DNA of 64,000 nucleotides from an uncultured Simkaniaceae bacterium (GTDB taxonomy: Bacteria; Chlamydiota; Chlamydiia; Chlamydiales; Rhabdochlamydiaceae): contig CAWEXT010000003.1 in assembly GCA_963813105.1 (NCBI GenBank), forward strand, positions 31,790 to 95,789, in the 5' to 3' direction. The notes beneath the pieces are model-generated. The model ran no database searches, was not told the DNA's origin, and saw only the letters and a list, made by a program, of their open reading frames with translations. The position numbers and the translations under genes were made by a program. Shown here in pieces: positions 54,598 through 57,626 of this stretch; the stretch's first letter is position 1, and the number at the start of each line of letters is the position of its first letter.

Positions 54598-57500
54598 ATG
54601 ATAGAAATCGGACATATAGTTTCTAGATTTGCGAAAGGTTGTTTATCTTTCTTATTGTCCCTCGCTCTTGTTTTTTCTAAACCTCTTTCTGCAAGCGACA
54701 AAATACCAACAACTGGCCCAATCCTTTCCTTCATCAGCATCACCGGACTCGATGATGAAATCATCAAAATCGGAAAAGGAGGAGATTGCGGCAAACCTCC
54801 GAAACAAGGTCCTCCAGGCCCTCCGGGTCCTCCAGGTCCGCCTGGTCCCACAGGTCCCCCAGGAGCTGGAACAACAGGGCCAACAGGGCCAACTGGAACT
54901 CCTGGTCCAACAGGCCCACCTGGATCAGGGTCAACAGGACCAACTGGTCCAACCGGAGCAACAGGCGATCCTGGAACAACTGGGCCGACAGGACCAACTG
55001 GGTCGGGACAACAGGACCAACCGGTCCAACCGGAGCGACTGGCGATCCCGGACCAACAGGTCCGACAGGACCAACTGGGTCGGGACCAACAGGACCAACA
55101 GGTCCAACCGGAGCGACGGGCGATACCGGAACAACTGGTCCAACAGGACCAACCGGGACCAACAGGACCAACCGGTCCAACCGGAGCGACGGGCGATCCC
55201 GGAACAACTGGCCCAACAGGACCAACTGGGTCGACCAACAGGTCCAACCGGTCTAACCGGACCGACGGGCGACCCGGAACAACAGGACCGACAGGACCAA
55301 CTGGGTCGGGACAACAGGACCAACTGGTCCAACTGGAGCAACTGGGCCAACAGGACCCTGATCAGGGTCAACAGGACCAACAGGTCCAACGGGAGCAACG
55401 GGCGATCCGGACAACAGGTCCAACAGGGGCAACTGGATCTACGGGTGAACTGGCCGACAGGACCAACAGGCCCAACAGGGGCAACTGGATCTACGGGTGA
55501 TTCTGGTCCGACAGGACCAACAGGACTAAGGGGCAACTGGTCAACAGGTGATTCGGCCACAGGACCAACAGGCGCAACAGGTGCAACTGGATCAACAGGT
55601 GACTAGGTCCAACCGGTTCTACAGGACCGACAGGTCCAACAGGAATAACCGGACCAACAGGTCCGACAGGTATAACAGGTCCAACAGGAGCAACTGGGGA
55701 AACTGGATTAACCGGAGCAACCGGCCAACAGGACCGACCGGTGCAACGGGCCTACAGGAGCAACTGGGGAACTGGATTAACTGGAGCAACTGGGCCAACT
55801 GGCCCGACGGGTGAACAGGAGCGACAGGTGCAACTGGGCCAACTGGTATAACCGGAGAACAGGACCAACAGGTGCGACAGGTGTAGGCACTGGCCAACTG
55901 GGGCAACTGGATCGACTGGATAACTGGGCCAACTGGCCCGACCGGAAACAGGATCGACGGTGCAACTGGGCCAACTGGATCAACCGGAGCAACAGGACCA
56001 ACGGGTCCAACAGGTCAACGGGTCCAACAGGAGCAACTGGGGCAACTGGACCAACTGGAGCAACTGGGCCAACTGGACCAACGGGTTCTACAGGACCACC
56101 GGTGCAACTGGGCAACTGGATCAACAGGTGCAACTGGCCAACTGGACCAACGGACAACAGGGCCAACTGGACCAACTGGGGCAACTGGATTAACCGGAGC
56201 AACTGGACAACTGGTCCGACTGGTACAACGGGTCCAACAGGAGCAACTGGGAAACAGGATCAACAGGTGCAACTGGTCCAACTGGACCAACAGGACCTAC
56301 AGGACCAACTGGTCCAACTGGGCAACCGGAACAACTGGCACAGGACCAACAGGTCCAACAGGCCTACAGGACCAACAGGTGCAACTGGCCAACTGGACTA
56401 CAGGAGCAACTGGCCCAACAGGACCGACCGGATCTACAGGACCAACGGGCCAACAGGTGAAACCGGACTACAGGACCAACAGGACCAACAGGTCCAACAG
56501 GATCTACAGGACAGGCCCAACAGGACCGACTGGACCAACTGGAGCAACAGGACCAACTGGTCCGACAGGTCCAACAGGACCAACTGGACCAACAGGACCG
56601 ACTGGACCAACTGGACCAACTGGACCAACAGGACCAACAGGACCAACTGGTCCAACAGGACCAACTGGTCAACGGGACCGACTGGACCAACTGGGCCAAC
56701 TGGACCAACAGGTCCAACAGGTCAACAGGACCAACTGGCCCAACAGGACCAACTGGAGCAACTGGCAACAGGCCCGACTGGTCCAACAGGTCTACAGGAC
56801 CAACTGGACCAACAGGACCAACTGGATCAACTGGACCAACAGGACCAACTGGTCCAACAGGTCCAACAGGACCAACTGGTGCAACGGACCAACTGGATCA
56901 ACTGGACAACAGGACCAACAGGTCCAACAGGATCAACAGGACCAACAGGACCAACAGGTCCAACAGGATCAACGGCCCAACAGGACCAACAGGACCAACC
57001 GGACCAACAGGACCAACAGGTCCAACAGGATCGACTGGGCCTACAGGACCAACAGGTCCAACAGGACCGACAGGAGTAACTGGACCGACAGGACCAACAG
57101 GTCCAACTGGGCAACAGGACCAACCGGAGCAACAGGTCCAACAGGAGCAACAGGACCAACTGGATCGACTGGACCGACGGGGACGTTGTCCTCGCTTCGT
57201 TATGTAGTTTTTAATGACACGCAGGGTTCATCTGTTACTGTAAACTCTGGCGCGACTGTTGTCCAAGCTGCCCGGGCACTAACTGGAACTCTTGTAACGA
57301 ATACCTCTGAGATCACTTTTGTTGCTACTACTGGTCTCGTAACTATCGATGATACTGGTGTATATTTGATTATGTATGGCGTAGCCAACTCAACAGCTAC
57401 TGCCTCATTTGCATTAGCACAAAATGGAACTCAATTAGGCACGCATTACACGATAGGAGCGACCGCTCAAAAGCTGTTGTGCAGCATATCTACAATTGTA

Positions 57501-57626
57501 AGCGTTACAAGTGGAGATACATTTAGTCTTAAGAATAATAGTGCAGTTACGGCAACTTTAAATGCAACTGGAGGTGCCGCTGTTCCACCTATTTATGCCT
57601 TTATGACATTTGTCAAAATTAACTGA
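54598..57626 (+). pseudogene. Collagen-like triple-helix-repeat protein (BclA-like): signal peptide, ~790 residues of G-X-Y dominated by GPT, and a ~148-aa C-terminal globular domain; many frameshifts as assembled
   Basis: Leader [35 protein letters not shown] begins at 54808 ([19 protein letters not shown]...). [16 protein letters not shown]-type peptides reappear in all three + frames down to ~57183. The final frame ends ...[20 protein letters not shown]...[26 protein letters not shown]...[10 protein letters not shown]. Confidence 0.85.
54808..57183 (+). repeat. 9-bp-periodic coding tandem repeat (GGN-CCN-ACN)n with a ~75-80-bp higher-order unit in its 5' part
   Basis: GGACCAACA/GGTCCAACT units run throughout. 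The block GGAGC(R)AC(N)GGCGAT(N)CCGGA recurs at about 54955, 55031, 55110, 55183, 55259 and 55391. All six frames stay open because the composition is stop-poor. Confidence 0.9.

Follow-up and report, generated by a model that had tools for sequence, protein, structure and literature searches.

A predicted collagen-like fibre protein with a BclA/C1q-type head and a conserved GT92 neighbour in a chlamydial genome

We analysed a stretch of 64,000 nucleotides (nt) from an uncultured Simkaniaceae bacterium (assembly GCA_963813105.1, contig CAWEXT010000003.1, positions 31,790 to 95,789), here called the window and numbered from its first letter. At 54598-57626 on the forward strand it carries a collagen-like gene, followed on the same strand by a gene for a GT92-family glycosyltransferase. 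With a probability of about 0.7, we read the former as one gene of ~1,020 residues whose product is an exported, trimeric, probably O-glycosylated fibre for host contact, and the many breaks in its reading frame as errors. The predicted order of the product is a Sec-type leader, a spacer with the motif DCGKPPKQ, a Thr-rich collagen-like helix of ~800 residues and a head of 147 amino acids (aa). The principle of a collagen stalk with a jelly-roll head is that of the Bacillus proteins BclA and F-BclA; the main new result is a chlamydial family of such proteins with a GT92 partner. A search of one library of papers for collagen-like or BclA-like proteins in Chlamydiota found none.

Gene layout and collagen-like repeat

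The gene begins with an ATG at 54598 (+), at the start of an open reading frame (ORF), from which 70 non-repeat residues run up to the repeat at 54808. The first part (54598..54693, +) is a predicted Sec-type signal peptide with a hydrophobic core (Kyte-Doolittle 2.64) and a likely cleavage site, placed by eye, before the residues SD; an earlier note on this DNA, made from the letters alone, had likewise put a cleavable leader ahead of the repeat. The short spacer that follows (54694..54807, +) ends in D-C-G-K-P-P-K-Q, a motif of the family, right before the first Gly triplet. The collagen-like tract itself (54808..57182, +), delimited with Tandem Repeats Finder (TRF) and a trace of the reading frame, comprises ~265 G-X-Y triplets, mostly GPT, GAT and GST, and is frame-broken 23-34 times. 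At the nucleotide level it is a 9-nt tandem array (GGN-CCN-ACN) that spans 54808-57188, and TRF reports a period of 9 with 262.6 copies, 69% matches and 6% indels at 54868-57175, in agreement with the ~260 triplets over ~2.37 kb counted in the earlier note. At its 5' end the repeat also has a higher-order structure, with periods of 60, 78 and 155 nt. The Pfam Collagen family (PF01391) matches the in-frame N-terminal 137 aa with 30.6 bits, above its cutoff of 27.2. The final 147 codons (57183-57623) are non-repetitive sequence and hold the strings that had been quoted from the last ~148 aa; together with the stop codon they make up the head region (57183..57626, +). No second collagen-like tract was found in the window, and scans for promoters and terminators gave matches at chance level only.

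Among the 228 triplets that can be read cleanly in frame, 131 (57%) are GPT, 33 are GAT and 19 are GST, and the Y position is Thr in 203 (89%). The description of the repeat as overwhelmingly Gly-Pro-Thr was thus somewhat overstated for GPT itself and holds for G-X-Thr. The entropy at the third codon positions of the repeat is 1.67, 1.10 and 1.73 bits, and the X residue is also variable, while the second position of the Pro codon (0.70 bits) and the first and second positions of the Thr codon (0.56 and 0.32 bits) are near-fixed; 22 synonymous spellings of GPT occur among the 131 units. The repeat is read as coding DNA because the variation falls at third codon positions and at the X residue, and non-coding satellite DNA was rejected on the same concentration of variation at third positions. 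The GC content of the tract is 57-60%, owing to its codons; it is 41-46% over the head domain, the GT92 gene and the cluster of paralogues behind it (57001-64000), and the rest of the window is largely at 47-50%, with local dips to ~40%.

The C-terminal head domain

Profile comparisons and a structural model place the 147-aa head among the predicted jelly rolls of the BclA_C and C1q-TNF type, as a divergent member. The Pfam family BclA_C (PF18573) matches it over profile positions 4-122 of 128 with 25.4 bits (E 1.5e-5; 24.4 bits on the bare domain), which is under the gathering cutoff of 38 bits, and the Pfam family C1q (PF00386) has no match to the window sequence at E<=10, although it does match some relatives. 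Of the two Pfam models that the earlier note had named, the first was therefore recovered below its cutoff and the second was not. An exhaustive phmmer search of 1.84 billion representative sequences gave only 17 matches at E<=1e-3; several of these relatives exceed the BclA_C cutoff (P0006, P0007, P0011 and P0015), and several have the same layout of leader, collagen and head. When the single domain was searched through a word index of 5.8 billion proteins, nothing came up but one relative and the 84-aa source fragment, and phmmer of the head against PDB sequences gave only chance ankyrin-like matches.

Profiles built from several sequences reached further. A profile of the window and its phmmer relatives (A1) matched F-BclA (9h38, 3e-17), collagen X NC1 (1.7e-6), C1q-like proteins (~5e-6) and BclA in the PDB. 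A second profile (A4), made to avoid circularity, comprised the window and 22 GT92-adjacent domains only; its matches in the PDB, nearly full length, were only F-BclA (9h38, 2.5e-11) and BclA chains (2e-5 to 2.6e-4), and 12 of the 23 members of its alignment match BclA_C at E<=0.01 (best 4.3e-10).

An AlphaFold 2 (AF2) model of the monomer, computed from a 39-sequence alignment, is all-beta with ~12 strands (predicted local distance difference test, pLDDT, 78.9; predicted template modelling score, pTM, 0.79). Foldseek found 229 matches to this model in the PDB at E<=0.001, led by F-BclA (9h38, E 3e-9, template modelling score, TM, 0.69-0.74) and followed by BclA (1wck, 2r6q and 3tyj, E ~5e-7) and then by EDA/TNF, C1q and ExsFA/BxpB; the matches to C1q, EDA and adiponectin have E values of ~1e-5, and C1QL is also among the leaders. 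In a viral library the best matches were giant-virus collagen proteins and phage fibre tips. The BclA/C1q-like C-terminal domain proposed in the earlier note is thus borne out by the profiles and, with a jelly-roll fold, by the model, and the strings TG-Y and NG that the note pointed to correspond to nearly invariant columns of the head (G59, Y61, N81 and G82). Pairwise BLAST gives 23-40% head-domain identity to chlamydial and non-chlamydial relatives alike, a divergence that would fit a surface-exposed recognition module, although this is only suggestive. By analogy, the head would be expected to trimerise.

A conserved gene pair

The GT92 gene (57700..58692, +) starts 74 nt after the stop codon of the collagen gene (57626) and has at least two frame breaks in the window. 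It was located by tblastn with the intact proteins of two contigs: L001, a public metagenome contig (European Nucleotide Archive ERZ25039540 contig_29973) colinear with window 49484-64000, and L003, a JGI contig from a different organism. The GT92 family (PF01697) matches the intact orthologue in L001 with 82.1 bits (cutoff 23). An alignment of GT92 proteins was scanned over one genome per GTDB species and gave 79 loci, of which the best ~45 are metagenome-assembled genomes (MAGs), most of them labelled Chlamydiae, Chlamydiota, Rhabdochlamydiaceae or Chlamydiales and the remainder 'uncultured Verrucomicrobiae', 'uncultured bacterium' or 'bacterium'. At 20 loci the GT92 gene is closely preceded, on the same strand, by a collagen-like ORF that is rich in GPT and has the same head, its end being 4-434 nt from the start of the GT92 match, with one overlap of 14 nt.

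The stop-to-stop frames that hold these collagen ORFs are 192-2,522 aa long, many being ended by contig ends; the ORF has 662 aa in L007, 882 in L013, 861 in L016, 1,036 in L029, 1,823 in L012 and at least 2,522 in L008, and L031 carries two collagen-like copies in tandem. From leader to head the frame is intact in L007, L012, L013, L016, L029, L031 and L037. Homologues with a complete N-terminus start with a hydrophobic leader, and in 14 sources, the window and L001 among them, the motif C-x(0-4)-[PK]-x-KQGP[PR]G marks where the collagen tract begins; many homologues share C-x-PPKQGPPG. The GT92 orthologues have a hydrophobic N-terminal segment as well, before the catalytic domain, in 14 of the 14 that could be parsed. 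L003 has the same order of GPT repeats, BclA_C head and GT92, and its repeats keep a single frame over 197 aa or more up to the head. The gene pair and the N-terminal motif are conserved across MAG loci that mostly have a chlamydial label.

Several organisms have two collagen-like/BclA_C-like genes with different heads, in tandem or a few kb apart (L002 1-1822; L005 584-2797; L031 3991-7977; L016 5320-7902 and 13184-14653), which suggests paralogue expansion and diversification of the head. In L001, six G-C-T triplets, with Cys at X, occur within a repeated unit of the collagen tract (6249-6922), a triplet absent from the commonest triplets of the window; these Cys residues might form inter-chain disulfides, or might be errors.

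The broken reading frame

There is no single ORF over 54598-57626. The region is divided among ORFs at 54598-55500 (300 aa), 54629-55606 (325 aa), 55811-57079 (422 aa) and 56379-57626 (415 aa), whose translations are largely out-of-frame repeat (DQQ... or TNR...), and each of the three frames has 6-7 stop codons per 793 codons. The Gly register changes among the three frames (here called a hop) 34 times if runs of at least 3 triplets are counted, 28 of these changes being of -1 nt, and 23 times with runs of at least 4 triplets. The odd 8-nt units are consistent with one base missing from a short CC, GG or AA run, as in GGACAACA compared with the normal GGACCAACA, further examples being GGTCAACG and GGCCAACA. 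A protein of ~1000 residues exists only after ~30 single-base corrections, and only an 84-aa ORF (P0001) has been called for the gene in databases. The missing frame counts against the earlier note, which had described a ~1000-residue protein, on that note's own terms, yet the evidence points to assembly error and not to a missing gene.

Essential genes of the window are broken in the same way. Those found split (dnaE, rplB, rplV/rpsC, secY and rpoA) lie at 10305-14036, 32347-34310, 39118-40195 and 41405-42468: dnaE is spread over at least three pieces, its PHP, NTPase and HHH domains lying in different ORFs; secY is divided into two overlapping ORFs (positions 1-51 and 53-200 of the Pfam profile) and rpoA into two pieces; of rplB only the N-domain is left, and rplV is truncated. 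Given such assembly-wide indel proneness, no gene of this genome can safely be called a pseudogene.

The colinear contig L001 aligns with the window downstream of the repeat (window 57189-64000 with L001 7758-14568) and upstream of the gene (49484-54597 with 1-5101), and is 99% identical across the 6.8 kb downstream of the collagen gene. Its collagen gene has only 7 hops, and the first five 78-nt repeats, which are out of frame in the window, are all in frame in L001, so that the breaks at this place in the window are not ancestral. The tract has 268 units in the window and 274 in L001; as the two assemblies agree, the repeat size of ~2.4 kb is probably right. Nine contigs with names that suggest short-read assemblers (L003, L007, L010, L013, L020, L029, L030, L031 and L037; the link from name to technology is one that we infer) have 0 hops over 0.5-2.5 kb. 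Among contigs of the 'contig_N' naming type (L001 and MFD MAGs), L012, whose name is of long-read style, has 0 hops over 4.7 kb and an intact 1,823-aa ORF, the highest count is 10 in L023, and the worst hop density is that of the window tract, with ~10-14 per kb.

The split essential genes, the -1 bias, the smaller number of hops in L001 and their absence from the short-read-style contigs together lead us to read the frame breaks as most likely errors, introduced by an indel-prone metagenome assembly that was probably made from long reads and gathered in a tandem repeat that is difficult to polish, a judgement drawn from assembled contigs. The opposite reading, that the frameshifts are genuine and that a collagen-like gene has decayed in this lineage and gives no full-length protein, would account for the lack of any open frame through the tract (6-7 stops in each) and for the broken RND pump and GT92 genes next to it, and slippage is common in repeat tracts. 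It would, however, leave dnaE, secY, rpoA and rplB broken in the same window, which is impossible in a living cell, and it meets a near-identical L001 with far fewer hops and five in-frame 78-nt repeats at the start of the tract, a strong -1 bias (28 of 34) that resembles a technical signature, and conserved Gly and Thr codons with synonymous variation, which imply selection until very recently; we regard such decay as distinctly unlikely. Programmed frameshifting or a deliberate multi-frame protein was also considered and rejected, since the hops in L001 are far fewer and, where compared, stand elsewhere, and essential genes are broken too. Indel-prone assemblies make collagen-like genes of this kind drop out of annotation.

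Organism and origin of the gene

The genome is chlamydial, as the earlier note had supposed. The best named relative of the histidyl-tRNA synthetase (HisRS) in the window is from a 'Simkania sp.' MAG (71%), and the next are from Chlamydiota, Rhabdochlamydiaceae and Parachlamydiales MAGs (~60%); the window also holds a gene resembling a glucose 6-phosphate (G6P) transporter, an apparent lpxC-fabZ-lpxA-fmt cluster and a ribosomal protein operon.

Horizontal acquisition inside an amoebal host, which the earlier note had thought plausible, is not supported as a recent event. In favour of a recent donor among spore-forming Firmicutes, Pasteuria or giant viruses, BclA_C is best known from Firmicutes, the structural matches in the viral library include Klosneuvirus and Bodo saltans virus (TM 0.72-0.76) and GC is lower at 57-64 kb than over much of the window. 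However, ~20 MAG species representatives, mostly with a chlamydial label, have the gene, the N-terminal motif and the GT92 neighbour, which speaks against a recent entry into this genome; the leader is of the Sec type and not of the exosporium type; no donor stands out among relatives whose heads are all 23-40% identical; and scans with the head domain of GTDB genomes, JGI metagenomes and the viral contigs of IMG/VR gave no match, and hence no close relative. We therefore consider a recent acquisition highly improbable, whereas an ancient transfer of the collagen-like gene is possible.

Structural matches to many phage fibre tips and to collagen-repeat phage proteins also raise the idea of a prophage remnant or cargo, in which the gene would encode a tail fibre of collagen type whose C1q-like tip binds the receptor. 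Against this, the flanks hold no phage genes but an RND efflux operon upstream and GT92 and unknown surface-type proteins downstream, a signal peptide is present, and many MAGs preserve the pairing with GT92 in the chromosome; a phage origin seems to us extremely improbable.

Comparison with known collagen-like proteins

BclA of Bacillus anthracis and B. cereus (1WCK, 2R6Q and 3TYJ) resembles the window protein in its GPT-dominated collagen region followed by a jelly-roll C-terminal domain of ~135-150 aa, in its matches to the chlamydia-only profile A4 (E 2e-5 to 2.6e-4) and in the Foldseek comparison (E ~5e-7, TM 0.62-0.69). The C-terminal domain of BclA drives trimerisation, the Thr residues are O-glycosylated and the collagen tract reaches up to roughly 90 triplets. 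The window tract is far longer than this, and the window head has ~16% identity to BclA in the structural alignment and is under the BclA_C cutoff. The N-terminal domain of BclA targets the exosporium and docks on BxpB/ExsFA, whereas the window N-terminus is an export leader with a Cys motif; the window host, a diderm and obligately intracellular bacterium, makes no spores, and the neighbouring transferase is a GT92 enzyme. In the window N-terminus nothing like the proline-rich exosporium leader described in PMC12357932 was seen. Judged by these sequence features, the window protein is not BclA proper.

The best match by both profile and structure is to the F-BclA/L-BclA tip fibrillae of Bacillus endospore appendages (ENA; 9H38; PMC12357932). 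These share with the window protein a very long collagen region (701 residues, ~200 nm, against ~800 residues in the window) and the lack of an exosporium leader. F-BclA docks on the F-ENA pilus by an N-terminal hook peptide (PMC12357932). It belongs to a different phylum, and neither ENA genes nor the hook motif were seen in the window.

For reaching a Gram-negative surface, the nearest functional analogue, by description, is Lcl of Legionella pneumophila, a collagen-like protein that has a signal peptide, repeats that vary in number and a trimeric domain at its C-terminus, acts in adhesion and is secreted by the type II system of an intracellular, amoeba-associated diderm. The C-terminal domain of Lcl is not known to have the BclA_C/C1q fold, and Lcl was absent from the top 50 Foldseek matches of the head model. 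The gene pair has a parallel in Clostridioides difficile, where sgtA adjoins a bclA gene; SgtA is not known to be a GT92 enzyme and acts in the mother-cell cytoplasm, unlike the window GT92 with its hydrophobic N-terminal segment. C. difficile BclA1-3 are described in PMC7157674 as collagen-like spore-surface glycoproteins modified by the glycosyltransferase SgtA. Pasteuria Pcl and the collagen-like fibres of giant viruses are placed on the infectious particle, where they mediate attachment to a eukaryotic host (PMC10987987 and PMC6238073). The giant-virus proteins have the same head fold by structural matches, but neither these nor the Pasteuria proteins have a close sequence relationship to the window protein, and the particle types differ. 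C1q, collagen X NC1 and the TNF superfamily also carry a jelly-roll head after a collagen stalk; they are eukaryotic proteins, and the Pfam C1q family has no match to the window.

Proposed product and function

The leader suggests that the fibre protein is exported. As in BclA and C1q, the C-terminal jelly-roll domains would form trimers from which the triple helix nucleates, and the Thr residues of the G-X-T repeats might be O-glycosylated by the adjacent GT92 enzyme, a modification that the 89% Thr at Y and the neighbouring gene make plausible only. The product would be a flexible fibril of ~225 nm, at 0.28 nm per residue over ~800 residues, the per-residue value being that of F-BclA, whose 701 collagen residues give a predicted length of 196 nm and a measured one of 206 +/- 17 nm (PMC12357932). 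On the same value the homologues in L012 (~520 triplets) and L008 (778 triplets) would reach ~440 nm and ~650 nm. Such a fibril would expose its fast-evolving head, which may touch host or environmental surfaces; the export route, a location at the surface and an adhesive role are likewise what we infer from this architecture.

Several points weigh against this interpretation. Besides the sub-threshold BclA_C score of the head, the density of hops in the repeat is at least 10 times that of the flanks (at most ~1 per kb by comparison with L001), so that the excess calls for an error mechanism specific to the repeat, which is plausible, and the choice of error over true frameshift in this genome, drawn from assembled sequence, is one of probability. 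Beyond the leader, no outer-membrane anchor or secretion signal is recognisable in the sequence. Both the fibre protein and the GT92 enzyme have hydrophobic N-terminal segments, which would put glycosylation outside the cytoplasm, where nucleotide-sugar donors are normally unavailable. The expression and the localisation of the fibre are predictions from sequence.

A broader and more speculative proposal, which we hold to be unlikely as a whole, is that many environmental chlamydiae build glycosylated collagen fibrils of 0.1 to >0.6 micrometres on or around their infectious particles, that the exported, eukaryote-type GT92 glycosylates them outside the bacterial cytoplasm with host nucleotide sugars and that the fast-evolving C1q-like head selects the protist or animal cell. 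If this broader reading is true, the fibrils would be a chlamydial structure for host attachment with the building principle of spore naps and giant-virus fibrils. Little is known of how chlamydiae other than the Chlamydiaceae select their hosts and attach to them, and the conserved gene pair is a concrete candidate for a host-contact structure, at the surface or secreted. The design of a collagen stalk plus a jelly-roll head, used by spores, phages, giant viruses and animal C1q, would also extend to an obligate intracellular Gram-negative phylum.

Neighbouring genes

Upstream of the collagen gene lies an RND efflux operon that is broken in the window. Its AcrB-type RND transporter (51327-54377) is in at least four ORF pieces in the window and in five in L001, by error or by real decay. 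Across the genes for the outer-membrane factor, the membrane-fusion protein and the RND pump, the identity between the window and L001 declines with distance from the collagen gene, from 95% at 54.2-54.5 kb to 88-90% at 52.5-54.2 kb and 70-76% at 49.5-51.2 kb; this drop could stem from recombination with its boundary at the repeat gene, from exchange of the efflux operon or from a consensus that is chimeric.

Downstream of the GT92 gene are three tandem paralogues of ~515 aa on the forward strand, the first intact (58761-60311, 516 aa) and the others frame-broken (~60351-61831 and ~62003-63553). They were recognised by homology to a 513-aa protein of L003, to which the three are 36-44% identical and which is encoded 5 kb from the collagen/GT92 pair of that contig. 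The paralogues are rich in short repeats and have no Pfam or PDB match, and they may belong to the same surface module. Farther along L003 follows a gene for a GT2 plus TPR protein, to which a partial gene at 63586-64000 (-) of the window has 38-43% identity, extending the conserved neighbourhood. At a distance from the pair, the window encodes a second exported-looking glycosyltransferase (29142-30221, -), a 359-aa protein with a hydrophobic N-terminus that matches GT90 (PF05686, 95 bits), a mainly eukaryotic family.

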